This document shows, one piece after another, positions 2,859 through 34,715 of a stretch of DNA of 64,000 nt (within the stretch, counting starts at the first letter, position 1; each line of letters starts with the position of its first letter). Location: NCBI GenBank assembly GCA_001771535.1, contig MEUB01000036.1, positions 842 to 64,841 of the forward strand. Reading direction: 5' to 3'. The DNA comes from a candidate division WOR-1 bacterium RIFOXYB2_FULL_37_13. GTDB lineage: Bacteria; Margulisbacteria; WOR-1; XYC2-FULL-46-14; XYC2-FULL-37-10. The position numbers and the translations under genes were made by a program. The notes beneath the pieces were generated by a model. That model searched no databases. It saw only the letters and a list, made by a program, of their open reading frames with translations, and was not told where the DNA came from.

Positions 2859-2877
2859 AGGGAAGAAGGCGCAAAAA

Positions 2878-3222: not shown

Positions 3223-3276
3223 CAAATAGCAATAATCATAAAAAATGATTTTCTAACAAAGGATGGTGAAATAAAA

Positions 3277-17862: not shown

Positions 17863-19215
17863 TTACTCAATACACGGAAGATTTTTTAGTGCCTCTTCAA
17901 CGCTTTCTTTAGGATATTCGTAATCTGTTAGTTTCCCTGAAAGATAGGCTTCATAAGAAGCAAGGTCAAAGTTTCCATGACCTGATAAATTAAATACAAT
18001 AACCTTTTCGCCTCCGGTTTTTGCTTCCTCAATTGCCGCCTTAATAGCATGACTGCTTTCAGGCGCAGGGAGGATTCCTTCCGCTTTTGCAAAAAGCACG
18101 GCCGCTTCAAAACATTCTGTTTGATGATAAGCTTTTGCTTCAACTATTTTGTCTTTTACTAAATTTGCAAGAAGCGGAGCTGTTCCATGATAACGAAGTC
18201 CCCCTGCATGAATTCCAGGAGGCATAAAAGAATGTCCAAGAGTATACATTTTAACAAGAGGGGTCAGCCCTACCGTATCACCAAAATCATATCTAAAGTC
18301 TCCCTTTGTAAGACTTGGGCAGGACATCGGTTCTACTGCTATAAGTTTCATGTCAGGATTCGCATATTTATCTTTTAAAAAAGGAAGAGCAATCCCTGCA
18401 AAGTTAGAGCCTCCACCAACACAGGCAATTATAGCGTCCACTTTCTTTTCGCCTGCAAGCTTAAGTTGTTCTTTGGTTTCCAACCCAATTACGGTTTGAT
18501 GAAGCAATACATGATTTAAAACGCTTCCAAGAGTATATTTGGCGCTAGGATCAGAGACCGCGACTTCAACAGCTTCTGATATAGCAATGCCCAAACTTCC
18601 CAAAGAATTTGCGTCAGCTTCAAGGATTTTTCTTCCCGAATTTGTAAGATTTGAAGGAGATGCATGAACGGTAGCCCCCCACACTTGCATTAAATTCTTA
18701 CGATAAGGCTTTTGCTGATAGCTTACCTTTACCATAAAAACTTCGCAAACAAGTCCGAAAATATTACAGGCAAAAGATAACGCAGAACCCCACTGTCCTG
18801 CACCTGTTTCAGTTGTTAATTTTTTTACGCCTTCCTGCTTATTGTAATAGGCTTGAGGAATTGCCGTGTTAACTTTATGCGAACCCGCAGGAGAAAGACT
18901 TTCGTTTTTATAGTAAATGCGTGCTTTGGTCTTTAATGCCTTTTCCAAATTATATGCGCGATGAAGAGGAGACGGTCTCCATAGTTTATAAATTTCGAGA
19001 ACATCATTAGGAATTTCAATCCAAGGTTCGGGAGACATCTCCTGTTTTATAAGCTCCATGGGAAATAGCAGTGCCAAATCCGCAGGTCCTATTGGCTGAT
19101 GTGTCCCTGGATGAAGCGGAGGCGCAAGAGGAGTTTTTAAATCCGGCAGTGCGTTATACCATCTTTTTGGAATCTCATCCTCACGAAGCACTATTCTATA
19201 TTTATCTGACATCAT
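17863..19215 (-). CDS. trpB: tryptophan synthase beta chain, TrpB2 type (start trimmed to the MMSDKY Met; the listed ORF begins at an upstream TTG inside a repeat tract)
   Basis: long TrpB2-type N-terminus ([10 protein letters not shown]...), PLP lysine motif [18 protein letters not shown]; RBS-like AAAGGGGGA precedes the ATG at 19213-19215. Confidence 0.8.
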
Positions 19216-19237
19216 GTCCCCCTTTAAAAAAATACAT

Positions 19238-20038
19238 TCATTGGAAATTGGACATTGGAAATTGGAAATTGTTCCCAAACATCTCTCTCATCTTACCCAA
19301 TACATCTTCACTTTTCAACAAGCTCTCCCCTATTAGGACGGCAGAAAAGCCGGCAGACTTGAGTTCGTCTATTTGAGATTTCTCGCTTATACCGCTTTCA
19401 GAGACCAAAATCCTTGATTTGAGTTCTGGGAATTTATCCAGCAATTTTAAAGAATTATTAAAATCGACTTTTAGAGTATCAAGGTTCCTGTTGTTTATTC
19501 CTACAATATCACAATTTAAAGACAATGCTTTTTCAATATCATATTCATCGTGAGTTTCAAGAAGGACTTGGAGCCCAAGCTCTTTAGCTTTTTCAAGGAA
19601 TCTTGAAAGATCAGGCAATTCTAAAATCCTAGCAATAAGCAGAATTGCATCAGCCCCTGCAATGCGCGATTCTGTTATTTGAAGTTCATCTATTATAAAA
19701 TCTTTGCGGAAAACAGGAAGTTTTACCGCGGCTCTTACCTGTTTTAGAAAGCCTATTTCACCTTGAAAATATGTTTTGTCGGTAAGAACAGATATTGCAA
19801 AGGCACCTGAAGATTCGTACTGTTTGGCAATTGAAACGGGATCAAAGTTTTTGACAATAATACCAGCGGAAGGAGAGGCTTTTTTGATTTCGGCAATAAG
19901 GGAAATTTTATTTTCTTGATTGATGGAAGACTTAAAGTCCCGCAAGTTAGGATCAAACTCCGTCTTAGCTGTTGCCAATCTTTCTTTTAAAGCTTCGATC
20001 TCTTTTCTTTTAGTTAAAATTATTTCATCGAGGATCAT
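19238..20038 (-). CDS. trpC: indole-3-glycerol phosphate synthase; the C-terminal ~11 codons are encoded by the heptanucleotide repeat tract
   Basis: [22 protein letters not shown] motifs of TrpC. Confidence 0.8.
19241..19271 (-). repeat. heptanucleotide tandem repeat (TTGGAMA)x4.5 on the plus strand, i.e. (TKTCCAA)n on the gene strand, at the trpC 3' end / trpB 5' leader
   Basis: ttggaaa ttggaca ttggaaa ttggaaa ttg read directly. Confidence 0.85.
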
Positions 20039-20111
20039 TTAAGGCTATTATAATCAACTTCTTAGCTTGCGTCCATCTCTTATGAAGTTTATAATATATT
20101 AGAGGTGTTTT

Positions 20112-20477
20112 ATGTCAACTTTAGCAGATTATAAAAAGTTTTGGTCAAGAAAATTCAAAGAAGACGAAAAAGCAAAAAAGAAGAAAATAAAACTTTTTAA
20201 GCAGCTTGCATCTGATGCAGCAAATATTTTAATAAAAGATTTTAAAGCCAAAAAGGTTTATCTCTTTGGATCAACTTTGGATGAAAAAATCTTTCATGAA
20301 AAATCAGACATAGATTTGGCAGTTGAAGGATTAAATCCTAAAATACATTTTTCCGCATTATCTGAAATAAAAAAACTGCTTTTTAAAAAAGCAAATGTAG
20401 ATCTTGTCCCTATGGAAGATGCATCGGAAGCACTTAAAGCATTAATTTTCAAAAAGGGAGAAATCTTATATGGCTAA
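20112..20477 (+). CDS. nucleotidyltransferase domain protein (MNT-type, minimal NTase)
   Basis: LFGS...SDIDLAV signature (GS-x9-13-DxD); 8-bp overlap with a downstream HEPN-like partner. Confidence 0.65.
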   Translation: MSTLADYKKFWSRKFKEDEKAKKKKIKLFKQLASDAANILIKDFKAKKVYLFGSTLDEKIFHEKSDIDLAVEGLNPKIHFSALSEIKKLLFKKANVDLVPMEDASEALKALIFKKGEILYG

Positions 20478-20943
20478 ATTTGAAGGACTGATTATAGATA
20501 TAGATTTAGAACTTCAAAATCTTGATCGATTAACTATGGAGCTTGGTCAAACAACACAAGAGATAAAAGAGATTCCGGATTATACGCAGATAAGAGCTAT
20601 TGGCAGTATTTTACATGATTTTTATACAGGACTTGAGAAAATTTTTGAAAGAATCGCGTTAACCATAGATGGAGGAGTTCCTGAAGGTGATGATTGGCAT
20701 ATTCAACTTTTACGCCGAATGCTTGCCAATATTCCAGACCGCAGACCTGCCTTATTTACAAAAAATGTTGGAGAGTCTTTAGGCGAATATCTTAGCTTTA
20801 GACATCTTTTTAGAAATATTTATGGTTTTGAATTAAAATGGGAGCGTATGAGTCCTCTTGTTGAAAAATTCCCTTCTGTTTTCAAAGAAGTTGAATCTCA
20901 ACTTATGAAGTTTATAAACTTCATATCAGAAATACAAAATTAA
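20470..20943 (+). CDS. HEPN domain / nucleotidyltransferase substrate-binding (HI0074-like) partner protein
   Basis: helical ~157-aa protein immediately downstream of the MNT gene with 8-bp overlap; R-x-x-x-x-H-like segment (FRHLFRN). Confidence 0.45.
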   Translation: MAKFEGLIIDIDLELQNLDRLTMELGQTTQEIKEIPDYTQIRAIGSILHDFYTGLEKIFERIALTIDGGVPEGDDWHIQLLRRMLANIPDRRPALFTKNVGESLGEYLSFRHLFRNIYGFELKWERMSPLVEKFPSVFKEVESQLMKFINFISEIQN

Positions 20944-20988
20944 GTATAAGAATCCTCATTCACTTAATACCTTTTTTAAAAAATAACC

Positions 20989-21076
20989 TGAAATTTTTCA
21001 AAAACCATCATGATACTCTCACAAGTTAGGGAGGAAGGGGCCAAGAGGAAAAGAAATCAAGGAGGGAACAATGACA
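20989..21076 (+). repeat. copy A of a duplicated ~85-bp 5' leader (approximately 80% identical to 25954..26033), ending in ATGACA
   Basis: GAAATTTTTCAAAAACCATCATGATACTCTCACAAGTTAGGGAGGAAGGGGCCAAGAGGAAAAGAAATCAAGGAGGGAACAATGACA aligned by eye against copy B. Confidence 0.7.
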
Positions 21077-21881
21077 AAGCCTGTAACAAAAACATCAAGA
21101 CCTAACCAAAGAACTCAAAGATGGCACAAGGAAAACCATAAAATGTTTTAGGTTGGAGAATGTAGAAATATGGGGGATGAAGAGGACTGCCGTTATGTAT
21201 TTTAGCGAAGCATTATATGACGGGCAGGTAAGGGGATGGAAAAAGATTTAAAAAAAGCAATTGAAAATTTGGAAAGTTTCAAGCTATCAGGCATGAAAGG
21301 GAGTTTTTGGCACAAGAGAAAAAAATGTATGTGGACAAAAGAGCTTTTTGAAAGAGAGGCTGAAAAAATAGTTAATAAACAATTTATTAGAGATATCGTT
21401 GATATTAAGTGAAAAAAACAGGCAAGTAATTTATTTAGAATATGAGATTAACACACAAAAAAAGAATTTTTTGAAAAATACAGTTTTAGGGAAAAGAATC
21501 TTAATAACAAGCCGGCAGGACTGGAATAATGAGGAGATAGTTTTAGCTTATCAGGGGCAAAAGGATGTTGAGTTTGCGTTTAGGCAAATAAAAAATCCAT
21601 TTCATACCTGTATCAGACCTCAATATCATTGGACAGATCAAAAGATAAAAGTTCATGTGCTTTGTTCCATTATTGCATTTACTATTTGCGCTTTAATTGA
21701 AAAGACCGCAAGAGAGAATGATTGTCCTTTTATAATAAACGACATTTTGGATCGCTTATCTTCAATACGAAAAGTAAAATACATAATCCCCAAAACTAAA
21801 AATAAATTCAACATTGAATACGGTATGGAAGAAATCGAAGATGAAGCAACAAGAAAATTATTTGAAGTTTTGATGAAATAA
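21070..21881 (+). pseudogene. decayed IS4/IS1634-like transposase (frame-broken fragments; the 21399..21881 ORF carries the C-terminal DDE region)
   Basis: C-terminal motif AFRQIKNPFHTCIRPQYHWTDQKIKVHVLCSIIAFTI resembles the IS4/IS1634 C-terminal consensus (...glRPiyHw...ri.gHlf...A); upstream frames are broken into 26-aa and 58-aa pieces. Confidence 0.55.
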
Positions 21882-22006
21882 TATATTTTTGGTGTATACA
21901 AGCTGTTCTTCTGAAAGTCAACAATGACAAGCCATGCAGGCTTTTTTATTTCTCCAGCAGTAAACTCACGCTAGCCCCGTTTCATAAAAAACAATTGGCT
22001 CTTTCT

Positions 22007-22474
22007 TTACTTAAAATTAAAAGCCACATTTTTTGTATTTTTAGGATCTATTTTAACAGGAAGAATAGCTCCAACCTGCATAAGATGTATAGCATTAAAA
22101 GGTATTACAAACCCATCTTCAACTATATAAGCAGGATACATAGGTGATGATATTTCTAATTTTATATCCATTACAGGCTGATAATTTAATTGGGTTTTTG
22201 ATGTTGCTATGCTTAATATTTCCCCCTTTCCATCAATCCCTTTTTTTAAAATATCTTTATCCCCAACAAAATTCCTCCAAATTACTTTTAATCCCTTGCT
22301 AAAAAACAACAGCAACAAAAGTATAGGCAGTAAAATTATTGCAATATTTATAATAGGAGTTATGCCAAAGTCTGTAATATTGCCAACATTGGAAAAATTC
22401 AAAATGAAAACTGAAGGAAGAACAAAAAAGATCCCAAAAATGACAAAAATAAGTACAAACTTTTCAGATCTCAT
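22007..22474 (-). CDS. DUF3592-like membrane protein, paralog 1 of 3 (N-terminal TM, OB-like core, GAxxPVKxDPKN motif)
   Basis: paralogous to 32879..33739 and to the split gene 29223..29474/31993..32274; shared upstream promoter module. Confidence 0.6.
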   Translation of the reverse strand: MRSEKFVLIFVIFGIFFVLPSVFILNFSNVGNITDFGITPIINIAIILLPILLLLLFFSKGLKVIWRNFVGDKDILKKGIDGKGEILSIATSKTQLNYQPVMDIKLEISSPMYPAYIVEDGFVIPFNAIHLMQVGAILPVKIDPKNTKNVAFNFK

Positions 22475-22679
22475 TTTCCCACCTCAAGAACAGCTTAAGC
22501 TAGTAGATATGCTTTGTCAATAAGGGCTTAAGCCCCAAGAACCAATTTTTCCTCCAAAATAAATGAAATTTTTTAAAAATGATAATGATAAGGTACTATA
22601 GATATTGTCAGTTTTTGTTTGAAAAATAATTTTCAGGGAGGCATATTTATTATGGTTATAAGTTTAGGTACTATTGTAA

Positions 22680-23900
22680 ATGACTCAAAGTGGAGCAATT
22701 ATTATTCATAATCTCAAAAAAGCGGATGAAGCAGGAGATAATGACGGAGAGATTGATCAGTTGCCAGAAAATGATGAAGTTCAAGCCGCTTTTCGTCAGT
22801 TTCAATTGGAGCATTTAAATGATACAAATGCCTGGTTAGGGTTTTTGGGAATAATGAAAAGTGAAGATTACTCAGAACCAAAAGAGATTATTCCAGAAGT
22901 ATCAACAGAAGAGTTGTATACTATTTTATCTCAAGCAAGCTCTCCTATTGTTGTTGATACGGGAGCATTAGCTTGGTGCGCTGCGTGCAGAAAAGTGTCG
23001 AAAGCCTTAAATGAAATTATTCATAAAGTTACAATAACTGCGAAAAACAATCCATGTAATCCTATTTTGCTAATACAGCCCCCTTCTATAACAATAAAGC
23101 TTCCTCTAATTACAGGAAACAATGTTTTTGAAATTGCAGTAGAAGATATTTATGGGAATGTTCGCAGTCAAAGCTTCAATGCCAATGGAGGAAGATTGGT
23201 TGATGAAAGCAAACAATATATCGCAGAAGCGCTGCCTTCTGGAAACAATTTACCGCTATTACCTGTAATGATATTTGAATTTTCAGATGTAATAAAGTTC
23301 TCTTACTCAAAAGACTTTTCAGAAAAATTTCATTCTGATGCTGAGTTAAAGCAAAGGATGGATATGCTTAAAGCTTTAGTTTTACAATTAAATACAACTA
23401 TCCCGGGATGTAATATTTCTGGTGTAGAAATCGACCCTTCAAAAGAAAATTCTCTTTTTGCCGGAATTATTCCCGACATGAATGACCCAAATAAACAAGT
23501 AATTTTAATATCAGCCTCTAAGCTTGCCATCTATACAGGGGAAAATGAATTGTTGAGCCTGATGGTTGCTGTGGCTGTCGCAAAAAATTTATATGGCAAT
23601 TTAATTTCAGGGAAAGAAAGCGAATGGAATAACTTGGCAATAAAAGCAAGGCAAAACGAAGTGATCCCTTTTTTAGATTGGCCTATATGGGGATTTAAAA
23701 CCCTTGATAGAGCCTATTTCGTAGGAAGAAACACAGAAAAACTTTTTGTAAACGCTTTGAGCCTGATTTTAGTAATGGGAAAGAAATTCGGTGAAACAAT
23801 AGATGATCCAACAACGCTAATAAACAAAATCCCTCTTTCAGAAGAGCAAAAAAAAGTTTTAAGAGAAATAGAAAAATTTGTCAAAGAAATTTTAAAGTGA
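22680..23900 (+). CDS. hypothetical protein (406 aa)
   Basis: long ORF with an RBS; first gene of a 4-gene plus-strand cluster. Confidence 0.55.
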   Translation: MTQSGAIIIHNLKKADEAGDNDGEIDQLPENDEVQAAFRQFQLEHLNDTNAWLGFLGIMKSEDYSEPKEIIPEVSTEELYTILSQASSPIVVDTGALAWCAACRKVSKALNEIIHKVTITAKNNPCNPILLIQPPSITIKLPLITGNNVFEIAVEDIYGNVRSQSFNANGGRLVDESKQYIAEALPSGNNLPLLPVMIFEFSDVIKFSYSKDFSEKFHSDAELKQRMDMLKALVLQLNTTIPGCNISGVEIDPSKENSLFAGIIPDMNDPNKQVILISASKLAIYTGENELLSLMVAVAVAKNLYGNLISGKESEWNNLAIKARQNEVIPFLDWPIWGFKTLDRAYFVGRNTEKLFVNALSLILVMGKKFGETIDDPTTLINKIPLSEEQKKVLREIEKFVKEILK

Positions 23901-25951
23901 TAAACATCTCTTTTGCAATCCCTCGTTCTCTTGCAAGCCTCGTCCACGAACCCAAGCAAGGAAAAAACGAAGAAGAAACAGCAATCAAAGCACTTATGCA
24001 AAATGGGTTTTCCAGAGAAGAGGCAATTGCGGTAATCAATGCTTTAGTAAAAATTCATTTTGGAGAGTTTGACACAGAAGGTGAAAAAAGATTTTTAAGA
24101 AATATGCCCGATTTTTTGAAAGTTTTAAAACGGCCCGCCCTCTTTAGAAGCACATTCCCTAATGGCGTGCACGATGAAAATCTAATAAATTCTTTTATTG
24201 ATTTCTTAATAGCTTTTGGAACAATAAAAAAGGGTTCTAAAGATTTAAAAAATTGCTTGAGCTGTCTAACAATGGACAATAATATTCCCCAAGAAATTAG
24301 CCTTGTTGCTGGTTATTTGTTAGACAGAAAAACTTCTTCTAATTTTGAGCTTATACGCCCTGTAAAAATAAATGGTAAGATTTACCTCCAAATTGAGGCT
24401 TCCTATATGAGAAAGGGAATTTCTCTTCCAGGCAACAATGTTTTAGAAGAGGGTTCTGTGCTATACAGAGATGGAAATTGGTTTTTTACTCCCCCGGTAA
24501 ACAACCAAAGAGACATAAGAACTCTTCCCACTATAAGTGGCGTTAGAATTCGTTCTCTTGCCCTTGCTGTTTCTGCCCCCAAACCAGGCAAATCGTTAGG
24601 TCATGAACTGCTCGCAAATCAACCGATGATCCCAATTTATTTCGATGGTCTGCCCAAAAATGCGCCGGAATATATCTCTTTAAGCCCAACAACAAAAGAA
24701 GTTGCCTTTAGTCTAAGCCAAGGGACTTATCTTGTTTTTGAAATAGGAAATCCATTCATAAAAAATTTTAGGGGTGCCGAAATAACTGTTCATTACACTC
24801 TTTTCCAAAAAGATGGAAATTTAGCCCTTAACCCAACCCTACTGCCCTCTTTTCATATAACAACTCCTGACCGCAAGCCTGTCTCATCCTTATCTATCAA
24901 TCCTCCATCTTTGTCTACGGGAGAACTGTTAAGGATCCAAATAGAGGATGAATTCTCAAGAATTTTTGTTGAATACGGAACTGGGAAAACCGGTTTTTAT
25001 GCAGAAGAAAATTTGGCATTAAATGAGCAAAACACAATCCCTCTTGAAATAAGATTGCAGAATGAAAGCTTTGTTATAAATGAATTTGGGGAATTTATTG
25101 TATTTAATGGGGGAGAAGAAAAAAGAAGAGGTTTCCCATATAACTCAAATTACAATCTGGATTTTACTTTGCCAGTAAGCCTCGAAAAAATCAGAAGTCC
25201 CTATGATCATCTTTCAAGATCAATTTTCGACAATAAAAAAGTAGCTGTTTTCTATGAGAGGGCGCCTATGACAAGAGGCCAAACCTTAGCTCATTTAGCC
25301 CATGCTTATTTATTGCTTCCCCCAATACTGCAAAGACAGATAAAAGTCATTAGATTTTCTTATAAAGAAGGACAAAGGAATAAGAGTGCAACATACAGCT
25401 TGCCAAATACAAGAGAAATAAGAATCAATGAAGGATTTTTCTTCCCCTCTCTTTCCTATCTGTCTGAAAAATTCGAAGCTTTTCGTAAAGAATGGGAAGA
25501 AGGGGTTCCTTCTTATGTAAAATCAGAAGCGCAAACTTTGGGGCTCGGATTTTGTGGCAGGCTTGAACTTATGCCTTTCGGTAACATGCCTAAAGGTTAT
25601 TCAGGAACAAAATCATCTGGCGAAAAAGGAGCTCCTTTCATCGTTACCACAAGACCCGCTTCTGGATTAGTAACTCGAGAACCGATAGATGTGGTAAATT
25701 TATATGCTGAAGCGGCTTACATTCTAGCAAGCAGAGAGCCAAATAGATTTTCTGGGTGGGAAAGAACAGATAAAAAAATAACAATTGCGGAAGATGTAAA
25801 AAACTTTCTTCTTGGGATAATAAGGCTCGAATTTGTATACAGCAAAAAACCTTCTCAAGCAACTTTTATCAAGAATCTGACAATCTTAAAAAGTAACGGC
25901 ATAATTACTGAAACTCAAGAAATACGAGCCAAGGCTTTGATGAAAAAATAA
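23897..25951 (+). CDS. hypothetical protein (684 aa)
   Basis: 4-bp overlap with the upstream gene; no recognisable motif. Confidence 0.55.
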   Translation: MINISFAIPRSLASLVHEPKQGKNEEETAIKALMQNGFSREEAIAVINALVKIHFGEFDTEGEKRFLRNMPDFLKVLKRPALFRSTFPNGVHDENLINSFIDFLIAFGTIKKGSKDLKNCLSCLTMDNNIPQEISLVAGYLLDRKTSSNFELIRPVKINGKIYLQIEASYMRKGISLPGNNVLEEGSVLYRDGNWFFTPPVNNQRDIRTLPTISGVRIRSLALAVSAPKPGKSLGHELLANQPMIPIYFDGLPKNAPEYISLSPTTKEVAFSLSQGTYLVFEIGNPFIKNFRGAEITVHYTLFQKDGNLALNPTLLPSFHITTPDRKPVSSLSINPPSLSTGELLRIQIEDEFSRIFVEYGTGKTGFYAEENLALNEQNTIPLEIRLQNESFVINEFGEFIVFNGGEEKRRGFPYNSNYNLDFTLPVSLEKIRSPYDHLSRSIFDNKKVAVFYERAPMTRGQTLAHLAHAYLLLPPILQRQIKVIRFSYKEGQRNKSATYSLPNTREIRINEGFFFPSLSYLSEKFEAFRKEWEEGVPSYVKSEAQTLGLGFCGRLELMPFGNMPKGYSGTKSSGEKGAPFIVTTRPASGLVTREPIDVVNLYAEAAYILASREPNRFSGWERTDKKITIAEDVKNFLLGIIRLEFVYSKKPSQATFIKNLTILKSNGIITETQEIRAKALMKK

Positions 25952-25953
25952 AG

Positions 25954-26033
25954 TGAAATTTTTCGAAAACCATTATGATACTCTTGCAAGTTAGGGAGAA
26001 AGAGGTCAAGCATTCAAGGAGAAAAAAATGACA
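25954..26033 (+). repeat. copy B of the duplicated leader, upstream of 26028..26540
   Basis: GAAATTTTTCGAAAACCATTATGATACTCTTGCAAGTTAGGGAGAAAGAGGTCAAGCATTCAAGGAGAAAAAAATGACA. Confidence 0.7.
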
Positions 26034-26540
26034 CAAACTTCCAGCAAAAGCTGTTTACTTTTGGCAATGAGTCGTCACGCTTTTTATGAAATTAACAGGC
26101 ATATTCCCACCACACAAAAAGGTTTGCCAAAAATCTTGAAAAGAAAATTGTATGGCGATGTAATTCCAAGAATAGAAAGAACTCTTTCCACAGCCGACAC
26201 AATAAAAGCCAAAGAAATAATTTCTATCGTTATTGAAACTGTAATGGATTTTTGGAAAAAAGACCCTTCTTTAGAAACGGCAAAAAAATTATCAGAAGAG
26301 CTAGACAATGTTATGTTAATAATCGAAACAGCACACTTTTTTAATCAAGTTATAGGAGAAAATATAGTTAATTTTTCATCTTTGTCTCCCTGTTTAAAAA
26401 TGTTCTCAAATCTACCGATAATAAGGAGATTAAGTCGTATGGTGGAAGATATTAAAGCAACAGCCCAAAAAAGCCCACCTGATTTCGCAATAACACCTGC
26501 TCTTTGGACTGGTTTCAAATCTTCAGAATACGACAATTGA
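26028..26540 (+). CDS. hypothetical protein (170 aa)
   Basis: preceded by a duplicated ~85-bp leader with an AAGGAG RBS. Confidence 0.5.
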   Translation: MTQTSSKSCLLLAMSRHAFYEINRHIPTTQKGLPKILKRKLYGDVIPRIERTLSTADTIKAKEIISIVIETVMDFWKKDPSLETAKKLSEELDNVMLIIETAHFFNQVIGENIVNFSSLSPCLKMFSNLPIIRRLSRMVEDIKATAQKSPPDFAITPALWTGFKSSEYDN

Positions 26541-26558
26541 AAAAAGGGGGAATAAAAA

Positions 26559-28661
26559 ATGGCAATGGAAATGGCAGCCTCTGCAATAGCACATGCTAGA
26601 CAACTCGGACAAACAGCTTTAAAAACAGTTTCCCAAGGTCAACACACTGCATCTCTTCGACAACAAGAAGCTTTTTTCCAAGTAATGTTTGATGCAAGTT
26701 TCCCTGCTGCAAAAAGAGTAGCTTACCAACTATATCCAAACAAAACATTGGTTGACAGTCCAAAATATAGGGCAAACTTAGAATTTCAACTGAGAAGAAT
26801 CCCTCCTGCACTACGAACAGCAATTTTCGCTGTATTGCATGCTATGCAACATCCAGTTGTTTTTAATAATATAGTAAACCCTCCAACAAATATACCCCAA
26901 ATAGCAAATTTATTAGGTGTTATTGAATTGGCAGGAAGAATGACGCTTCCATCGCTACTAGATAATCCTCAAATAAGTCCTAATCACTTTTCTATAGTCC
27001 AAAGAAATACTAGCAGAGTTGATTTGACACAATTTGACACCTTTTTTAAAGATGGGAGAATCCCTCGTCAATTTAGAAAAAATGATTTTGTTATAGTCGG
27101 ATCAGGCCCAGGAGGGATAATGACAGCACATATTTTACATGAAAAATACCCAGATGCTCAAATTCTAATAATTGAAGAAGGAGATTATTATCCTGGTAAA
27201 ATTTTCGGCAATTCAACTCCTATAAGAGCTACAGGTGAGTTCTATTCAGAAGGAGGAGTAACTGCTGCTATTGATTTAAAAAATGCAAGTGGAACAGCTG
27301 CCCCTACTGGCAAAGCGGTTGGAGGAAGCATGGAAATTTTTAGTACAACTGCGGCAAGAGTCAGAACCAGCGAGGAGTTTGAGCTTTATGGTTTAAGTAA
27401 ATATATGACTTGGGAAAAATATCAGAAGACAGTTGCTTGGGTAGAAGAGATACATGATGTTGCTGAAAACCCACAGGAAATAATCAACACAATAACCAAG
27501 GAAATGATCAGAGCCGCACAAAATATGCCTAAAGAATCTGGGATTAGAAATGCTGGTCCTACAAAATCATTTAGTGCTCATAAGTGTGGTGGCCTAGGAA
27601 AATGTCCTGTTGGCTGTGATACGGGAGGAAAAGAGACAACAGCTATGGTTCTTTTGCCTGCGCTTTTGGCATCTGGAAAAGTAGGATTAGTTTCAGGAGC
27701 AAAAGTTACTCAAACTATTTTAAGATCAGACAACAGCCCTAAGGCTGTAAAAATATTTTCAATGGAAGGCGTCTCTACCATTGGAATAGAAGATGGTATT
27801 ATTTCAAGTGCCGGTACATTTGGTTCCCCAGTTATAGTACATAACGCAGGGATTCGACTCCCTATGTTAGGCAAAAAATATACTGGGCAAGCAGCATTTG
27901 AACTTTTTGCATTTAATCCAAACAAAAAAATTGATCCCCCTCAACATGTAGGAAAGCCTCAATCTGGTTATATTGAGGTTTACAACACAGATAATGCGTT
28001 AGCTGATCTTGTTGCCACAGTAGACGGATTTATCGGGCTTGGTGAAGGGGCACGTCCTGCTACAGGAATTCTTGCAATGGCAAGGAGACGCTTATATGGA
28101 ACAAATTTAAGAGATTCAATAGAAGGACTTCCTTACACTGGCGTTTTTGGAGGAGTTCTCACTGAAAACATGGAAGATGTTAGGGCCGGTCTTTCAGGAG
28201 GAAATGTATATCCTGGATTGAGTAATATTTTTGGACAAAAAGTGCTAACATACTCATTATCTGAAAGAGATAGAATGAGAAGAAAATTGCTTGCATTAGC
28301 CCTCTTAAAAGTAGCCGCAAATACTCCTCAAGGAGAATATTTAGGAATAGGCCTCAATCATTTTTTTCCAAGTAAAAGCAAGTATGCTAGTTGGGGATTA
28401 TTCCTTTCTTCAGAATTACCTGAATTCGAAAGATATTTATTGCCAAATAAAAAAGTCGACTTGAGTGAAGAAATATTTTTTCATCCTATGGGATCAATGG
28501 GAGATTGTGTCGATAACGAAGGGAAGGTAATAGGCTCAAAAGATTTTTATGTAATAGATGGATCTTTATTTAAGGGCCCTGGAGTAAATCCTACAATTTC
28601 AATATTAACAGTTGCTGCTGAATTAGCTTCAAAAATAAAAAGGAGAAAAAGAATACATTAA
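26559..28661 (+). CDS. GMC-family FAD oxidoreductase-like protein with a ~170-aa N-terminal extension
   Basis: DFVIVGSGPGG dinucleotide-binding motif and C-terminal HPMGSMGDCVDNEGKV...VIDGSLFKGPGVNPTISI (GMC_oxred_C-like). Confidence 0.65.
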   Translation: MAMEMAASAIAHARQLGQTALKTVSQGQHTASLRQQEAFFQVMFDASFPAAKRVAYQLYPNKTLVDSPKYRANLEFQLRRIPPALRTAIFAVLHAMQHPVVFNNIVNPPTNIPQIANLLGVIELAGRMTLPSLLDNPQISPNHFSIVQRNTSRVDLTQFDTFFKDGRIPRQFRKNDFVIVGSGPGGIMTAHILHEKYPDAQILIIEEGDYYPGKIFGNSTPIRATGEFYSEGGVTAAIDLKNASGTAAPTGKAVGGSMEIFSTTAARVRTSEEFELYGLSKYMTWEKYQKTVAWVEEIHDVAENPQEIINTITKEMIRAAQNMPKESGIRNAGPTKSFSAHKCGGLGKCPVGCDTGGKETTAMVLLPALLASGKVGLVSGAKVTQTILRSDNSPKAVKIFSMEGVSTIGIEDGIISSAGTFGSPVIVHNAGIRLPMLGKKYTGQAAFELFAFNPNKKIDPPQHVGKPQSGYIEVYNTDNALADLVATVDGFIGLGEGARPATGILAMARRRLYGTNLRDSIEGLPYTGVFGGVLTENMEDVRAGLSGGNVYPGLSNIFGQKVLTYSLSERDRMRRKLLALALLKVAANTPQGEYLGIGLNHFFPSKSKYASWGLFLSSELPEFERYLLPNKKVDLSEEIFFHPMGSMGDCVDNEGKVIGSKDFYVIDGSLFKGPGVNPTISILTVAAELASKIKRRKRIH

Positions 28662-28800
28662 TAAAATTTATTTCTATTCGATAAAAACATATGCGTATAG
28701 TTTTTATAAACACTCTTCCTCCGTATAGAGTTATATAAAACTCAATTGCCCTTCTATCCAAAATCCTATATAATCCCAAACAAGAAAAGGAGTAATTAAT

Positions 28801-29226
28801 ATGTCAGACAAATTATTGATAATTTCAGTTATAATCGCAGGTTTAATTGTTTCTTTATTTATCGTATTTAATAACAACCCTATAAGTAAAACTGTATCCA
28901 CTTTTATGACAGATATAAACAGAATAAAGATTCCAAACAGTTTCCCCAAAGATATTCCAATTTACCCAAATGCAAAAGTTGAAACCTTATCAATTAAAAA
29001 AAGCCAGACCCTTCTTGTCCTTATTTCCAAAGATAGCCCGACACAAATAAACAACTTCTATGCTTTAGAAATAAAAAAATACGGCTGGACATATACATCA
29101 AAAGACATTAATTTCTATGCGTCAACCAAAGAACATCGTGAATTATTTGTTTCTATATCCAAACTCCCTGAAGAGATAAACAAAAATGGACATTATATAG
29201 TAATCAATGAAACAACTAAAGATTAA
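28801..29226 (+). CDS. small N-terminally anchored secreted protein, paralog of 32372..32872
   Basis: N-terminal TM/signal; shared motifs FPKD(I/L)P(I/V)Y.N.K and NFY...K.GW. Confidence 0.55.
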   Translation: MSDKLLIISVIIAGLIVSLFIVFNNNPISKTVSTFMTDINRIKIPNSFPKDIPIYPNAKVETLSIKKSQTLLVLISKDSPTQINNFYALEIKKYGWTYTSKDINFYASTKEHRELFVSISKLPEEINKNGHYIVINETTKD

Positions 29227-29474
29227 AGCGCAGTTTTTTCCCCTGAAGGATTAATATTCCAGGCATTTATAGCTACCCTTTTTGGGTTTTTTGGATCAAC
29301 CTTAACGGGGATAACGGCTCCCAACTGGATAAGAGAAAGCCCCATTAAAGGAATCAAAAATTTGTTTTCTATAATATAATATTCGAGCTTGTCCGTCAAC
29401 TCCCAGTCTTGTCTAATGCAAGATGTCCCTGAAGTAAAGACTGTTTCTAACGCAAAATGTCCCTGAAATGTCAT
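29223..29474 (-). pseudogene. C-terminal fragment of a DUF3592-like paralog split by IS insertion
   Basis: ...LIPLMGLSLIQLGAVIPVKVDPKNPKRVAINAWNINPS matches the intact paralog; the N-terminal residues are encoded by the IS inverted repeat. Confidence 0.7.
29228..29375 (-). repeat. ~150-bp tract nearly identical to 33229..33378 (3' region of the DUF3592-like paralogs)
   Basis: CTGAAGGATTAATATTCCAGGCATTTATAGCTACCCTTTTTGGGTTTTTTGGATCAACCTTAACGGGGATAACGGCTCCCAAC(T/C)GGATAAGAGAAAGCCCCATTAAAGGAA shared with only a few mismatches, while the flanks are diverged. Confidence 0.75.
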
Positions 29475-29484
29475 TATCGAGCTT

Positions 29485-30000
29485 ATGAATAAGCTAATAA
29501 TGATGGATCATAAAATAAAAACTGTTTCGAATCTTGAAAATCTTCTAAAAGCTGTGGTGAATTTAGATTTTCAACTAATTGACAAAAAAACTACCTACGA
29601 TTGGATTGATGATATTTTAAAAAGATTCAATTACATGTCTGCTTCAAAGAAACATAAAGGAATTTTAAAGCGTTACATTATGAAAATGACTGGTTATAGC
29701 GGTCGACAAGTTAAAAGGCTCATCAAAAAGCAATTTCAAACTGGAAAATTGACAATAAGTAAAAGTTCTAACCGTTGCAAATTCAAAAATATATACACCA
29801 AAAAAGATATCGCTTTGCTGGTTAAAACGGATAATCTTCACAATCGCTTAAATGGGTTAGCCACTAAAAAGATTTTTGAAACCGAGCATTTTACTTATGG
29901 AAAAAAGAAATATGAAAGGTTAAGTAAAATCTCTATAGCTCATATTTACAACTTGCGAAAAACTACGACATTGATCTTCCCCCCAAAAAGTAGACAGTAA
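29485..30000 (+). pseudogene. N-terminal (HTH) part of the IS481-like transposase, truncated by IS3 insertion
   Basis: KRYIMKMTGYSGRQVKRLIKK HTH-like segment; the ORF terminates inside the IS3 left inverted repeat. Confidence 0.6.
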
Positions 30001-30001
30001 A

Positions 30002-30862
30002 TTATGCATTCACGAACTTTTTTTCAAAGTTGTCTGGCGACAGAAACCCTATGGACGAGTGCCTTCTCTGTCGATTATAGAACACTTCGATGTAATTGAA
30101 AATGGACTGCCGCGCCTCCTTTCTTGTGGCATATCTTTCAAAATAGACTTGTTCAGTCTTCAATGAATGAAAGAAACTCTCGGTTATAGCATTATCGTAA
30201 CACCTCCCTTTGCGACTCATGCTTTGAATGAAACCATAATTGTTAAGCAATAGTCTCGTATCTCTGGCCGCATATTGAATACCTCGATCAGAATGAAATA
30301 TTATATTTTTGCCTGGCTGGCGGCTCAAGATAGCACCCTTTATGGCCTTGACCACCAATTGGCTTTCTAGGTGCTTTCCCATAGACCATCCGACAATCTT
30401 TCTGGAAAAGACATCAAGAACAACTGCAAGATAAAGCCAGCCCTCCAATGTCCAGATGTATGTAATATCTGATGTCCAGACTCGATTGGCTGATGCTGAA
30501 ACAAAGTTTTGCTTTAGAATATTTGGAGCTACTGGCAAAGTGTGCTGAGAATCAGTTGTCACTCTAAATTTTCTTCTTGTCTTAGCCACAAATTTGCCTT
30601 TCATAAGACGCTCAATCCTTTTTTTATTGTAATGATAACCTTGGCTCTTAAGTTCGGCACAAACTCTGGGCCGACCATAAAGCTCATGGTTTTCAAAAAA
30701 AATCTTCTTGATCTTATCCAGCAAAACCTCATTTTCTGTTTCTCTTTGGCTTTTCTCTCCCCTTAGCCATTTGTAATAGCCGCTTCGTGATACATCTAAC
30801 AACTGGCACATCTTCTCAACCGGAAAGTCGAAGCATTGCTCTCTTACAAACATAAATCTCAT
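30002..30862 (-). CDS. IS3 family transposase OrfB (DDE integrase core), expressed by -1 frameshift from OrfA
   Basis: rve-type core: WTSDITYIW, HSDRGIQY, YDNAITESFF; IS3 DDE(35)E spacing. Confidence 0.8.
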   Translation of the reverse strand: MRFMFVREQCFDFPVEKMCQLLDVSRSGYYKWLRGEKSQRETENEVLLDKIKKIFFENHELYGRPRVCAELKSQGYHYNKKRIERLMKGKFVAKTRRKFRVTTDSQHTLPVAPNILKQNFVSASANRVWTSDITYIWTLEGWLYLAVVLDVFSRKIVGWSMGKHLESQLVVKAIKGAILSRQPGKNIIFHSDRGIQYAARDTRLLLNNYGFIQSMSRKGRCYDNAITESFFHSLKTEQVYFERYATRKEARQSIFNYIEVFYNRQRRHSSIGFLSPDNFEKKFVNA

Positions 30863-31158
30863 CTCGGTTGTTTGGAGAAGATGGCCACTGCTTTTTTTAA
30901 AATATCTCGCTCCAACCTGGCCTCTGCCAACTCTTTTCTTAAACGCCTGATTTTAAGAGATTCCTCAATCCCTCCGCTTGTTTCTCCGTCTTCTCCCTCT
31001 CTTCGATCACGTTTTTGCCATCCATACAGCGTACTCGATGACACTCCTAAATCTTTAGCAATTGAGGCTACAGGTCGCTTGCTGGTATTAATTAAATCCA
31101 GCGTTTCCCTAATGAAGTCCTTATCACACCGTTTATATGGTCCTTTCTTTTTCCCCAT
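30859..31158 (-). CDS. IS3 family transposase OrfA (HTH)
   Basis: IS3/IS911-type HTH (VASIAKDLGVSSSTLYGWQK) and leucine zipper. Confidence 0.8.
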   Translation of the reverse strand: MGKKKGPYKRCDKDFIRETLDLINTSKRPVASIAKDLGVSSSTLYGWQKRDRREGEDGETSGGIEESLKIRRLRKELAEARLERDILKKAVAIFSKQPR

Positions 31159-31227
31159 AAAATCCCCCCCCTCTAATATATTATCAAAATCTCTAATTAC
31201 TGTGTCTACTAAAAGGGGGGAGGGTCA

Positions 31228-31985
31228 CATATCGTGACAGATCAATTACTTTCACCAAGACTAATCCAAGGAAAATTAATATCGGCGAAAGAAAACGCCC
31301 TGAACCTCAAGGCAAGCCAGGCTATATCCGCGTAGATACTGTGCATCAGGGCGATTCCGACAAACAAAAAGGGGTCTATTATATAAATACTGTCGACGAA
31401 GTTACCCAATGGCAGGCAATTGCCGCTGTAGAAAAAATATCTGAAACATATTTACTCGAGGCTCTCTTAGGCTTGCTCAATCAATTTCCATTTGAAATCA
31501 TTGAATTTCATAGCGACAATGGTTCAGAATACATCAACAGACAAGTCGCAGAACTTTTAAACAGACTTTTAATTAAACTTACGAAATCTCGAGCTAGACA
31601 CTGTAATGATAACGCTTTAGTAGAGTCAAAAAATGGGGCTGTAATTAGAAAATGGATGGGCTATGCTCATATTCCTCAGAAACATGCCCAAGACATCAAC
31701 AAATTCTTTAAAAAATATTTTAATTTATATTTAAACTACTACAGACCTTCTATTTTCCCTGAAATTGTATTTTCTGCAAAAAGAAAAGAGGTCAAAAAAT
31801 ACAGATATGAGAATACAATGACCCCTTTCGCAAAACTAAAATCCATTTTTGAATACAAAAAGTTCCTCAAAAAGAATACTTCCGTCGTTGACTTAGAATT
31901 GTTTTTAAGCAATGATAGTCCTAATGAGTTTGCTGAAAAGGTGGTGAAGGCTCAAGATTGTCTCTTTAATGGCATTTCTACCTAA
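31228..31985 (+). pseudogene. C-terminal (DDE catalytic core) part of the IS481-like transposase, downstream of the nested IS3
   Basis: HSDNGSEY and CNDNALVESKNGAVIRKWMGY motifs (rve family); same frame as 29485..30000 once the 1256-bp IS3 and its 3-bp duplication are removed. Confidence 0.6.
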
Positions 31986-31992
31986 CCCTTTT

Positions 31993-32274
31993 TCAGGGAC
32001 ATTCTTGCATTAGAAAATACTCTCCCTTTTCACGAAGCTCCTGATCACTAACCAATGAAGTCCACAGAATCTTAAGAACAGAAATTATAAAAGGAAGAAA
32101 AATCAAGATCGACACAACAGGAATAGCTACGGGTAAAATATCACTCGGTCGCGAACCAAACCCCATAGCAACTCGGCTTCTATACATATCCAAAAAAACA
32201 GCTGGAATTATACCAAAAAAAGCAACGGTAAAAATAAAAATAGAAAAAATAATTATAAATTTTGCTGATCTCAT
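31993..32274 (-). pseudogene. N-terminal fragment of a DUF3592-like paralog split by IS insertion
   Basis: MRSAKFIII..RSRVAMG..SDQELREKGEY then FLMQECP-stop encoded by the IS right inverted repeat. Confidence 0.7.
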
Positions 32275-32371
32275 CTCTCCACCTCAATAACAGCTTAAAT
32301 TAGGAGAAATGCTTTGTCAATAAAGGTTTAAGTAGTATAATGCCTATACATTTAGTAAAAGGAGTTGTCAT

Positions 32372-32872
32372 ATGAATAAAGGTTTATTGATTGGCGTCAT
32401 AGTTTTGGGATTGATCGCATCTCTGTTTGTAGTCTTTAATTACAACTCAATGTTCGGTCTAGTCGTAGGTTTTATGACAGGGGGAGAAACTACTTGGAAC
32501 AACAATGCTTTAGGAACTAACCAGGGAGGCATAATTCACTTAGCCGCAATGCCGGGGAAAGGAATAAATCCCCCAAAACAGTTTCCAAAAGATTTACCTG
32601 TATATTCAAACAGTAAAATTATTACTCTGCATATAGATACAACACAAACTCCAAACTTGATCAATATAATAATGGAATCTGACGATGATGCAAATACAGT
32701 ACACAATTTTTATAAATCTGAAATGCAAAAGAATGGATGGGCGTTGAAAAGTGAAAATGGTTCAGTTTTTATGACAGATTGGACAAAAGACATCCGCAAA
32801 TTGAGCATTATGATATCTCAAGGCAAACGGGGAAATCCAAATACGCCAGGATGTTCTATAATGATTAATTAA
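32372..32872 (+). CDS. small N-terminally anchored secreted protein, paralog of 28801..29226
   Basis: TM/signal N-terminus, PKQFPKDLPVYSNSKI and NFYKSEMQKNGW motifs shared with the paralog; RBS AAAGGAG. Confidence 0.55.
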   Translation: MNKGLLIGVIVLGLIASLFVVFNYNSMFGLVVGFMTGGETTWNNNALGTNQGGIIHLAAMPGKGINPPKQFPKDLPVYSNSKIITLHIDTTQTPNLINIIMESDDDANTVHNFYKSEMQKNGWALKSENGSVFMTDWTKDIRKLSIMISQGKRGNPNTPGCSIMIN

Positions 32873-32878
32873 GCCTTA

Positions 32879-33739: not shown

Positions 33740-33756
33740 TTTTTCACCTCAATGAC

Positions 33757-33785
33757 AGCTTAAAATAGTAGAACTGCTTTGTCAA
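33757..33785 (-). promoter_or_regulatory. minus-strand promoter (TTGACA-17-TAAGCT) plus a GAGGTG RBS for the DUF3592-like paralog; conserved upstream of all three paralogs
   Basis: conserved block CACCTCAA..ACAGCTTAA...TGCTTTGTCAATAA.GG.TTAAG at 22480..22530, 32280..32330 and 33745..33795. Confidence 0.4.
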
Positions 33786-33806
33786 TAAGGGTTTAAGAAG
33801 TATAAT
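33779..33806 (+). promoter_or_regulatory. TTGTCA-16-TATAAT promoter ending 9 nt before the rsmH ATG; its -35 hexamer overlaps a minus-strand TTGACA serving the divergent paralog gene
   Basis: GCTTTGTCAATAAGGGTTTAAGAAGTATAATG; the same module recurs at 32296..32335 and partly at 22495..22530. Confidence 0.5.
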
Positions 33807-33815
33807 GTTTATTAT

Positions 33816-34715
33816 ATGGATACATTCCACCTGCCTGTAATGGCAAAAGAGATAGTTAATTTTCTCTCCCCTCTTAACGGAAAAACAATCGTCGATTGTA
33901 CGGTGGGTGGAGGGGGACACATCTCAAAACTAATATCCAATATCCAATTTCCAATTTCCAATGTCCAATGTCCAATGTCCAATTTCCACATCATAGCTAT
34001 CGACCAAGACCAGGAAGCTCTTGAGTTTGCTAAAAAACGATTGGCTAAATATGACAACATTGAATATATCCATGACAATTTTGGCAACTTGGCAAATATA
34101 ATAAAAGAGTCTGTTGATGCTTTTCTCTTTGATCTTGGCATTTCATCATACCAGATAGACCAGGCTTCCCGCGGTTTTAGCATACGATACGATGCGCCTC
34201 TTGATATGCGAATGGACAAAAGTAAACAGACATCCGCTCGCGAAATAATCCACAATTCAAGCGAGGATGAATTAGCGCAAATTTTCAAAGAGTATGGTGA
34301 AGAGCGGTTTTCAAGAAGAGTTGCCCGCGCGATTGTCTTGGAAAGAGACAAAAAAGAGATAAACACAACATTTGAGCTGAAAGATATAATAGAGAAAGCA
34401 ATCCCCACATGGAAAAAGAGAGAGTCTGTTACCCGCATATTCCAAGCACTCCGAATTGCTGTTAATTCAGAGCTTGATGTTTTAAAAAAAGCTCTGGAAT
34501 CAACAATCCCTTTACTTAAACCGGAAGGGAAAATAATCGTAATGTCGTATCATTCATTGGAAGATCGAATTGTTAAATGGTTTTTCAGAGATAAAGCTAA
34601 AAATGGTATACTTAATATACTTACAAAAAAGCCTGTTCTTGCGACAGAAGAAGAGACTGCAATTAATCCAAGGGCAAAAAGCGCTAAGTTGCGGTGCGCT
34701 GAAAAGAACAACTAA
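33816..34715 (+). CDS. rsmH: 16S rRNA (cytosine1402-N4)-methyltransferase RsmH, with a ~10-residue in-frame insertion encoded by a heptanucleotide repeat
   Basis: GGGGH, IAIDQD, FDLGISSYQID, DMRMD motifs of MraW/RsmH. Confidence 0.85.
   Translation: MDTFHLPVMAKEIVNFLSPLNGKTIVDCTVGGGGHISKLISNIQFPISNVQCPMSNFHIIAIDQDQEALEFAKKRLAKYDNIEYIHDNFGNLANIIKESVDAFLFDLGISSYQIDQASRGFSIRYDAPLDMRMDKSKQTSAREIIHNSSEDELAQIFKEYGEERFSRRVARAIVLERDKKEINTTFELKDIIEKAIPTWKKRESVTRIFQALRIAVNSELDVLKKALESTIPLLKPEGKIIVMSYHSLEDRIVKWFFRDKAKNGILNILTKKPVLATEEETAINPRAKSAKLRCAEKNN
33935..33990 (+). repeat. heptanucleotide tandem repeat (NTCCAAT)x8 in frame inside rsmH
   Basis: atccaat atccaat ttccaat ttccaat gtccaat gtccaat gtccaat ttccaca read directly. 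Confidence 0.85.

Follow-up and report, generated by a model that had tools for sequence, protein, structure and literature searches.

The window analysed here comprises 64,000 nucleotides (nt) of contig MEUB01000036.1 (assembly GCA_001771535.1) from candidate division WOR-1 bacterium RIFOXYB2_FULL_37_13 (Saganbacteria/Margulisbacteria), a species of Rifle aquifer groundwater. On its minus strand, trpC, coding for indole-3-glycerol phosphate synthase (IGPS), is followed by a trpB2-type gene for a TrpB-like pyridoxal phosphate enzyme, and a tandem array of the heptanucleotide AATNTCC occupies the junction between the two genes (Table 1). Read on the minus strand, the array is ...GGGAACAATTTCCAATTTCCAATGTCCAATTTCCAATGAATGTATTTTTTTAAAGGGGGACATGATG and the region around it (19300-19190) is ...ATGTTTGGGAACAATTTCCAATTTCCAATGTCCAATTTCCAATGAATGTATTTTTTTAAAGGGGGACATGATGTCAG; the constant core of the unit is the hexamer TCCAAT, with T, G or A as the seventh base. 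Tandem Repeats Finder (TRF) delimited the array at 19240-19271 with a period of 7, 4.6 copies, 92% matches and a score of 57. According to the translation, the tract supplies the last 11 residues of TrpC (256-266) together with the TGA stop codon, and, as a reading made from the sequence alone had stated, it lies immediately ahead of the trpB ribosome-binding site.

Table 1 Positions of the heptanucleotide arrays and of the genes that carry them. Positions without a contig label refer to the window.
Feature	Position	Strand or orientation	Basis
Heptanucleotide array at the trpC end (AATTTCC x2, AATGTCC, AATTTCC, then AATG; 4.6 units)	19239..19271	-	TRF, shuffles, contig comparison
trpC (indole-3-glycerol phosphate synthase), 266 aa	19238..20038	-	Pfam PF00218, E = 9e-82; NCBIfam NF001377, 309.6 bits (cut-off 260)
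TrpC codons 256-266, array-encoded tail	19241..19273	-	Translation; beyond the ends of the IGPS profiles
trpC TGA stop, made at the 3' edge of the array (…CCAATGA)	19238..19240	-	Read from the sequence and translation
Shine-Dalgarno sequence AAGGGGGA of trpB, 13 nt past the trpC stop	19217..19224	-	Read from the sequence; kept in variant strain L002
trpB2-type gene (TrpB-like pyridoxal phosphate enzyme)	17863..19212	-	NCBIfam PRK12391, 717.9 bits
rsmH array, 8.1 units (AATATCC x2, AATTTCC x2, AATGTCC x3, AATTTCC)	33932..33988	+	TRF score 79
rsmH (16S rRNA m4C1402 methyltransferase)	33816..34715	+	TIGR00006, 296 bits
mutL linker array (...GDKFPISNVQS...SFPISNGG...)	L315 1414-1433	sense	Exact TCCAATTTCCAATGTCCAAT
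Array before a solute-binding-protein gene (542 aa), in the spacer or at the gene's 5' end	L268	sense	Exact TCCAATTTCCAATGTCCAAT
mnmA array, between ATGHYVQI and EIQKAKYKLLKG	L293	sense	Exact TCCAATTTCCAATGTCCAAT
Three AATGNCG-family arrays of L249, among them one after the trpC TGA that gives the first residues of the next gene (MPNDEL...)	L249 9167-9199; 18755-18787; 19528-19560

The array is well above what composition alone would give. Allowing up to two mismatches, the two-unit 14-mer TTCCAATTTCCAAT matched the window 11 times compared to 3.1 ± 1.6 times in shuffled sequences, none of 100 shuffles reaching 11, and nine of these matches fall within the trpC tract and a second tract in rsmH. 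Among near-perfect arrays of at least three units with unit sizes of 7-12 nt, only period 7 was represented in the window (2 observed, 0.25 in shuffles). With head-to-tail 7-nt units, at least three in number and more than expected by chance, the trpC array has the make-up of a heptanucleotide simple sequence repeat (SSR).

Of the 266 residues of TrpC, 3-252 are covered by the Pfam IGPS profile, and the NCBIfam TrpC models stop at 252-256; in 119 of 120 homologues the C-terminus lies within a few residues of ...KIKELxG, the focal TrpC alone continuing, so that the extension past the normal end claimed by the sequence-only reading is confirmed. The nearest homologue (72% identical, L137) ends with ...KELF and that of L143 with ...ELFA, both lacking a tail. 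In an AlphaFold model built from 34 sequences (mean predicted local distance difference test score, pLDDT, of 94.7), the last helix covers residues 246-257 and the tail is coil with a pLDDT of about 53 (mean 53 over residues 261-266). Judged from the homologues and the model, the tail is predicted to be dispensable, and annotators may regard it as a harmless appendage, neither a functional extension nor a sequencing error; the consequence for trpC itself would be little.

Simulated changes in unit number altered the TrpC tail, in agreement in principle with the sequence-only reading, and left the IGPS domain intact throughout. One unit yields a TrpC of normal length (259 aa, ...MFGNNFQ-stop), and the four units observed, as well as seven, use this same stop (...NFQ-stop). 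With two, five or eight units the protein ends with ...PMNVFF at a TAA ahead of the Shine-Dalgarno (SD) sequence, and with zero, three or six units trpC is read in frame into trpB, giving a product of about 720 aa. Unit numbers in nature were compared on consensus sequences of contigs, not on reads. The exact 266-aa TrpC is present on 22 contigs (JGI, ENA from two pipelines, and Logan assemblies of different samples), its 90% protein cluster is a single sequence, and the tract DNA is identical on all contigs that span it, including that of the variant strain L002, which carries single-nucleotide differences next to it. Because the identical tract recurs across samples and assemblers, we rejected an assembly artefact, which the sequence-only reading had named as an outcome that would speak against it. 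Switching between on and off states, both being present, was not seen at trpC, where a single allele occurs and IGPS always stays intact.

For trpB, ATG codons at 19215 and 19212 are candidate starts, and gene callers gave 449 or 450 aa. We set the start at the second ATG, because strain L002 reads GGGGGATATTATG at this place and the first ATG is gone (CATGATG to TATTATG). In the same strain (L002 ~2613-3936), which is 99.7% identical to the window, trpB is broken into open reading frames (ORFs) of 296 and 120 aa, possibly by a frameshift or an assembly error.

The second array of the window encodes 19 residues of RsmH in the loop after the GGGGH motif, as seen from a comparison of this loop with 120 homologues. 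Of all inverted repeats in the window, the two arrays make the best pair (97% complementarity over 33 nt), and they are both sense to their genes and encode the same heptad peptide, as had been noticed in the sequence-only reading. The same reading had treated the two genes as unrelated, which has to be corrected: trpC and rsmH are adjacent and divergent in two other Margulisbacteria (L143 2185-3870; L249 9195-10885). In the window they are 13.8 kb apart (19238-34715), and the interval contains an MNT/HepT toxin-antitoxin pair (20112-20943) and IS3-type transposase genes (30859-31158, 31341-31985). At rsmH the array varies in length. Three assemblies of different samples, all made with MEGAHIT (L140, L141, L142), carry a 7-unit allele with one GTCCAAT fewer on contigs otherwise 100% identical to the window over 2.9-3.7 kb, one of which also bears the trpC tract, unaltered. 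The 7-unit allele is a frameshift that stops RsmH at residue 57, with ON states at 5, 8 and 11 units. Among the consensus contigs both an on and an off state are present, as in phase variation, and the 7- and 8-unit alleles may be natural OFF and ON variants of a 16S rRNA methyltransferase gene. An RsmH 86% identical to the focal one (P0122, compared as protein only) has an unrelated loop.

The arrays of trpC and rsmH share a 20-mer, TCCAATTTCCAATGTCCAAT, which a metagenome scan recovered at 117 or more loci. In the species itself it is carried by at least five loci, namely trpC, rsmH, mnmA, mutL and a spacer ahead of a binding-protein gene, so that the view of only two copies has to be widened. 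Contigs L315, L268 and L293 were assigned by exact protein look-ups to WOR-1 RIFOXYC2_FULL_37_10 / RIFOXYB2_FULL_37_13, the species assignment of L293 being inferred from accession ranges. The same unit is thus arrayed at several unlinked loci of one genome, with five as a lower bound. All five are oriented in sense to the gene and four of the five are translated in frame, unlike the mainly intergenic placement by which heptamer families are recognised. Between relatives, orthologous sites differ in the presence of the array, as found for the TrpC tail, the mnmA site and the RsmH loop. The MutL linker holds a 3-unit array and a decayed second array about 40 nt downstream (KFPISNVQS...SFPISNGG); a slip of one unit in either direction would truncate MutL and could act as a reversible mutator switch. 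Length variants of MutL were not seen among its cluster members, all four of which are 575 aa long.

Comparison within the Margulisbacteria showed that the same sites are used again with changing units. After GGGGH, the corresponding codons of rsmH in L143 (RsmH 60% identical) consist of (AATGTCA)x4.4, those in L249 of (AAATGTC)x4.6 including one TTTCCAA unit, and those in L250 of a decayed AANNTCA series. Across 116 margulisbacterial RsmH loops, residue identity was 0.183 at lag 7 compared to 0.04-0.09 at other lags, and 118 MnmA loops gave 0.148 at lag 7 against the same range. Margulisbacterial MnmA proteins have a hypervariable loop of 5 to 49 residues between TGHYAR and KLLKG (L293, L331, L368; P0278-P0396), which is filled, always at the same site, either by heptad-periodic peptides (MTNDKCLMSNEG, MPNAECRMPNEG, KSEILNPKSE and others) or by GC-rich palindrome-like peptides (PSPSGRGG, PLPEGEG). 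In two mnmA orthologues with 54% identity, this site is occupied by the same array DNA, which is read in a different frame in each, and the closest relative, RIFOXYD2_FULL_36_8 (mnmA 83% identical at the nucleotide level), has an octamer array, (CAAGGGAT)x3, at the mnmA site between near-identical flanks. Furthermore, L249 contains five near-perfect period-7 arrays in 20 kb (nine according to TRF). Three of them belong to an AATGNCG family with the units AATGACG, AATGCCG and AATTACG; besides the array behind trpC, a second one lies at another gene junction and supplies the start of ArgC (MPNAELRMTN...), and the third is inside ArgC. Judged from the rsmH loops of L143, L249 and L250, the MnmA loops and the junction arrays of L249, heptamer arrays at gene junctions and in permissive loops are a trait of the phylum, the unit differing by genome and the sites being reused.

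Beyond this phylum, arrays of three TCCAATN units were found at >120 loci in species-representative genomes, e.g., of Patescibacteria, Chloroflexota, Bacteroidota and Acidobacteriota, both inside genes and between them. TCCAATN was found at 54 loci of viral contigs, whereas two control heptamers of matched composition and likewise free of stops gave 30 and 27. The spread across phyla was considered as a mark of something special and is weakened by these controls, which are only about 2-fold rarer; it is mostly what a large database of heptamer SSRs gives and therefore not evidence for function. Freedom from stop codons in all six frames, considered as the reason why the unit appears in genes, is true of the unit, yet it explains little because half of all heptamers share it. 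The orientation of arrays inside ORFs (sense to antisense) was 43:18 in the genome set (p = 0.002), 14:14 in the metagenome set and 9:8 in the viral set, so that a general bias to the sense strand is not established, since the data sets disagree and the ORF calling was crude. In this respect, the sequence-only reading had held that a tract common in genomes and without strand or gene bias would refute it, and half of this was found: the tract is common across phyla, and the strand bias is inconsistent.

In L323, an array replaces about 18 residues of TrpA between PPEE and IFMVAPTT, and in L298 an RsmG-like protein begins with 10 residues encoded by an array (MSNVQFPMSNEG...). Five contigs of Patescibacteria and Saprospiraceae (L018, L022, L056, L069, L079) have (AATTTCC)3-4 directly 3' of a G+C-rich hairpin, like a terminator in which the T run was replaced. 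In Candidatus Haliotispira prima (L045 743-776, 1912-1945, 6914-6947; L114), (ATCCAAT)x5 is part of a longer repeat with the flanks …aaacggtataata / atccataccaag…, which is present three times within 8 kb.

Dispersed heptanucleotides of this kind are an already known class of bacterial repeats, to which the AATNTCC arrays belong. The short tandemly repeated repetitive (STRR) sequences of cyanobacteria, reportedly described by Mazel and co-workers in 1990, are said to be such heptanucleotides. Arrays of GGGGA(T/C)T / GGGNATC in Nostoc and Xanthomonas occur genome-wide with a preference for four units and lie between co-directional ORFs and near stop codons, and an excess of heptameric SSRs exists in bacteria (Rehm et al. 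2015, PMC4692102). Like STRR and GGGNATC, the arrays studied here are tandem 7-nt units dispersed in one genome, with one variable position, four units favoured and many locations near stop codons and between co-directional ORFs; the Nostoc unit on its other strand (AATCCCC) is one base apart from AATCTCC, and the Margulisbacteria are the sister group of the Cyanobacteria, the hosts of STRR. Unlike GGGNATC, AATNTCC is not G-rich and its four GG runs would form at best a weak two-tetrad quadruplex. In marine Beggiatoaceae, some Cyanobacteria and Bacteroidetes, TAACTGA repeats are located immediately ahead of start codons; they are spread across phyla without a known vector, and binding of the heptamer by a protein was proposed (MacGregor 2015, PMC4679880). 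They resemble the AATNTCC arrays in that one heptamer occupies many loci (2-6 units for TAACTGA), is shared by distant phyla, has occasional copies at gene ends and stands a few nt ahead of a start codon in sense orientation; TAACTGA, with stop codons in forward direction, is nearly excluded from coding sequence, in contrast to AATNTCC, which is stop-free in six frames and translated and shows no sign of an enrichment upstream of start codons. In long SSRs, as far as Mrazek et al. 2007 is cited in PMC4679880 and PMC4692102, heptanucleotide units are the most abundant class in many genomes and slippage was proposed. The whole-unit changes at rsmH are alike, whereas the expectation from these cited parts that units not divisible by three avoid coding sequence is not followed by the arrays here, which are read in frame within housekeeping genes and recur at the same sites in orthologues. 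The unit differs from those of the described families CCCCAGT, TTGGTCA, CAACAGT, GGGNATC and TAACTGA, and a literature search found neither two consecutive AATNTCC units as a described repeat nor a paper linking Margulisbacteria with heptamer repeats. A sister phylum of the Cyanobacteria hence also bears dispersed heptanucleotide repeats, here translated within core genes at recurrent sites.

Taken together, we consider it probable that the trpC tract is a member of a dispersed, slippage-prone (AATNTCC)n family that is tolerated at a permissive gene end as a neutral passenger. As the unit is free of stop codons whatever the frame, translation would simply run on through an array at the trpC end, giving an unstructured tail of 11 residues with TGA at the 3' edge, and the array could persist there since every frame is harmless to the enzyme. 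Arrays of the family would change length in 7-nt steps by slipped-strand mispairing, as seen at rsmH only, and selection would retain them only at permissive places such as gene termini, spacers between genes, surface loops and linkers. The trpC copy, absent from all relatives compared, would be recent and was probably seeded from another family array by ectopic recombination or template switching. Such a transfer between loci is favoured over an origin in place, because at least five loci share the 20-mer and the closest relative differs at the mnmA site (DNA) and at rsmH (protein only). Several points weigh against this interpretation. The variation in copy number that the sequence-only reading had expected at trpC was not borne out, as one allele was present on all tract-spanning contigs at consensus level, and slippage there is only deduced because of the missing length polymorphism. 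The 7-unit rsmH allele is known from one assembler (MEGAHIT) and from contigs rather than reads; the same pipeline also yielded the 8-unit allele in another sample (L014), making a systematic artefact unlikely. The census of five loci in the species is a lower bound, and no transposase, terminal repeats or target duplications tied to the arrays were found, the window holding only an unlinked transposase of IS3 type. An unrelated contig (L333) shows a similar order of stop codon, array, T-rich stretch, GGGGGA and ATG, and a role of the array in the trpB leader is conceivable.

Of the competing accounts, the likeliest regards the tract as a discrete small mobile element of about 30-60 nt, pasted into many sites including coding ones, with the trpC copy as an insertion at the stop codon; cyanobacterial small dispersed repeats are an analogue. 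Its unit would read AAT(G/T) + TCCAAT-T-TCCAAT-G-TCCAAT-T-TCCAAT + GA(A/T)GGTAT, in some genomes with the hairpin ATCGCTTCGCGAT and a T run. In low-GC metagenome contigs the commonest form has four units in the order x,T,G,T followed by AATG, which the trpC copy matches exactly. The 3' flank TGAAGGTAT / TGAATGTAT recurs at 56 low-GC loci (45-96% depending on the position), the trpC copy having TGAATGTAT, and is shared by a subfamily in related low-GC contigs. In unbinned low-GC contigs this subfamily often has the hairpin and T run after TGAAGGT. In L252 (1216-1290, 1686-1711), array and hairpin stand in frame inside the ThiL gene, which also holds an antisense array, and in L285, L334, L341 and L352 inverted pairs of arrays surround the hairpin between convergent genes. 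The mnmA orthologues of 54% identity with one array DNA in different frames, and arrays present or absent between close relatives, fit an element as well. The Rickettsia palindromic elements (RPEs), 100-150 bp long and palindromic with defined ends, are known to colonise housekeeping genes in frame (PMC10969869), and, like them, AATNTCC is a short repeat in frame in unrelated housekeeping genes at tolerant positions, present or absent between relatives. Unlike RPEs, it is a direct tandem array of 20-57 nt that has no inverted termini and changes its length by units. No terminal inverted repeats, target duplications or shared flanks were found between the trpC and rsmH copies, which have nothing in common beyond the units, and the module of common 3' flank and hairpin was not found at the rsmH, mutL or mnmA copies. 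As would be typical of an SSR, the lengths vary between 3 and 15 units and the flanks resemble decayed heptamer units (AAT at -11..-9 and +6..+8). No candidate enzyme emerged, and the control heptamers are only about 2-fold rarer in viral contigs. We therefore hold an element of this kind to be possible and rather unlikely, and the phrase "mobile or recombinationally seeded" of the sequence-only reading stands only with respect to the 20-mer shared by at least five loci and the differences between relatives, not to the hallmarks of insertion. It is doubtful, too, whether an unrecognised process repeatedly writes short tandem arrays (AATNTCC, AATGNNN) into fixed sites of housekeeping genes in Margulisbacteria and other uncultivated bacteria, the sites being gene junctions, the linker of MutL and two loops, that of RsmH behind GGGGH and that of MnmA flanked by TGHYAR and KLLKG. 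Since the frames differ between 54%-identical orthologues and the array differs in an 83%-identical relative, upkeep would act on the DNA and not on the protein. If true, this would point to a new, very small site-seeking element or to recurrent break-and-templated-repair at fixed sites, and, as side effects, ribosome decoding (rsmH) and the mutation rate (mutL) would come under reversible frameshift switches.

Other accounts concern the trpC-trpB junction itself. A cis-acting RNA element of the trpB leader could work by SD pairing and translational coupling, as a U/A-rich landing pad or by binding a protein (cold-shock protein, S1). In line with this, both the minimum free energy and the centroid fold pair AUGUCC and UCC of units 3-4 with GGGGGACAU (SD and first AUG), the location just 5' of a start codon resembles that of TAACTGA in Beggiatoaceae (PMC4679880), and on other contigs several arrays precede a gene of the same strand by 1-60 nt. 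However, the fold is weaker than in shuffled sequences (z = +1.44; 188 of 200 shuffles fold as well), the pairing partner GGACAU has become GGAUAU in strain L002 next to an unaltered array, and the tract has no Rfam match at E ≤ 1 and no sigma-70-like promoter or intrinsic terminator on the gene strand. The same array stands inside rsmH, mnmA and mutL without a start codon after it, and no consistent sense bias emerged across data sets. An SD-sequestering hairpin, although predicted, was dismissed as a coupling device (z = +1.4, broken in L002), and the translational coupling of trpC and trpB through the tract that the sequence-only reading had proposed found no support. Regulation specific to trp (leader peptide, TRAP, T-box, attenuator) was likewise rejected, given the same array in unrelated genes, the lack of an Rfam match and the unstable fold. 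An RNA element thus appears improbable. Given the absence of an RNA family, the weak fold, the changes in L002 and the unaltered spacing from stop to start (with the stop at the array's 3' edge, the distance to SD and start equals that of the one-unit state), the trpC array most likely rides along as a neutral passenger and does not regulate trpB. A contingency switch, in which unit changes toggle separate TrpC and TrpB against a fusion, or their coupling, and lead to heterogeneous tryptophan synthesis, is hardly credible, even though zero, three or six units fuse the genes in frame without a stop, natural bifunctional TrpC/TrpB proteins exist (NCBIfam PRK13802 among the profile hits) and the rsmH sibling shows an ON/OFF-type 7-nt polymorphism. 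Only the 4-unit allele is present on the tract-spanning contigs, with TrpC a single-sequence cluster on 22 contigs, an array at the 3' end is unable to switch TrpC off, and trpB retains its own SD and start in every frame. The phase-variable heptanucleotide repeats of hmw1A in Haemophilus influenzae (PMC8262952) are alike in the 7-nt unit and its gain or loss by slippage, with rsmH as a frameshift ON/OFF polymorphism in a near-clonal population. They differ from the trpC copy, which is 3'-terminal and without variation, and the arrays here sit in genes for housekeeping enzymes rather than in surface or restriction-modification genes, and no host-pathogen context exists. Finally, the tract might be a locally born microsatellite, grown by slippage from a single ...AACAATTTCCAATGA 3' end, its likeness to rsmH being coincidence or shared mutational bias. 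Growth in place from the seed ...AATTTCCAATGA at the trpC end is possible: one unit gives the usual homologue length of 259 aa (…MFGNNFQ-stop), in L249, too, trpC ends with CAATGA, and an array of another unit (AATGACG type) begins at its stop, and heptamer arrays of many units are common in these genomes. Local birth as the whole account is nevertheless quite improbable, because at least five loci of one species have the identical 20-mer in common, down to the T-then-G order of its units, five independent convergences on it being very unlikely, and the closest relative has other sequence at the mnmA (DNA) and rsmH (protein only) sites.

With the neutral passenger of a dispersed family as the favoured interpretation at trpC, the interest of the arrays lies in their other sites. 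If they slip as the rsmH polymorphism suggests, an rRNA methyltransferase, and potentially MutL too, would be knocked out reversibly within a natural population of the aquifer. Additionally, they provide a tractable case for the old question of how one heptamer spreads within and between genomes.

Regarding the remaining content of the window, trpC and the TrpB2-type gene (17863-20038) are its only trp genes, with no trpA or other trp gene downstream; the ORFs after the TrpB2-type gene code for an unknown protein of 95 aa and then an NHL-repeat protein. Longer repeats are present as well. An 84-nt tandem repeat at 38226-38566 (3.6 copies, TRF score 363) presumably encodes a protein repeat of 28 residues. 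Direct repeats comprise one of 287 nt with 75% identity (32061-32347 / 33526-33812), of which one copy ends just upstream of rsmH, one of 152 nt at 94% (29228-29379 / 33229-33380) and one of 112 nt (22421-22532).

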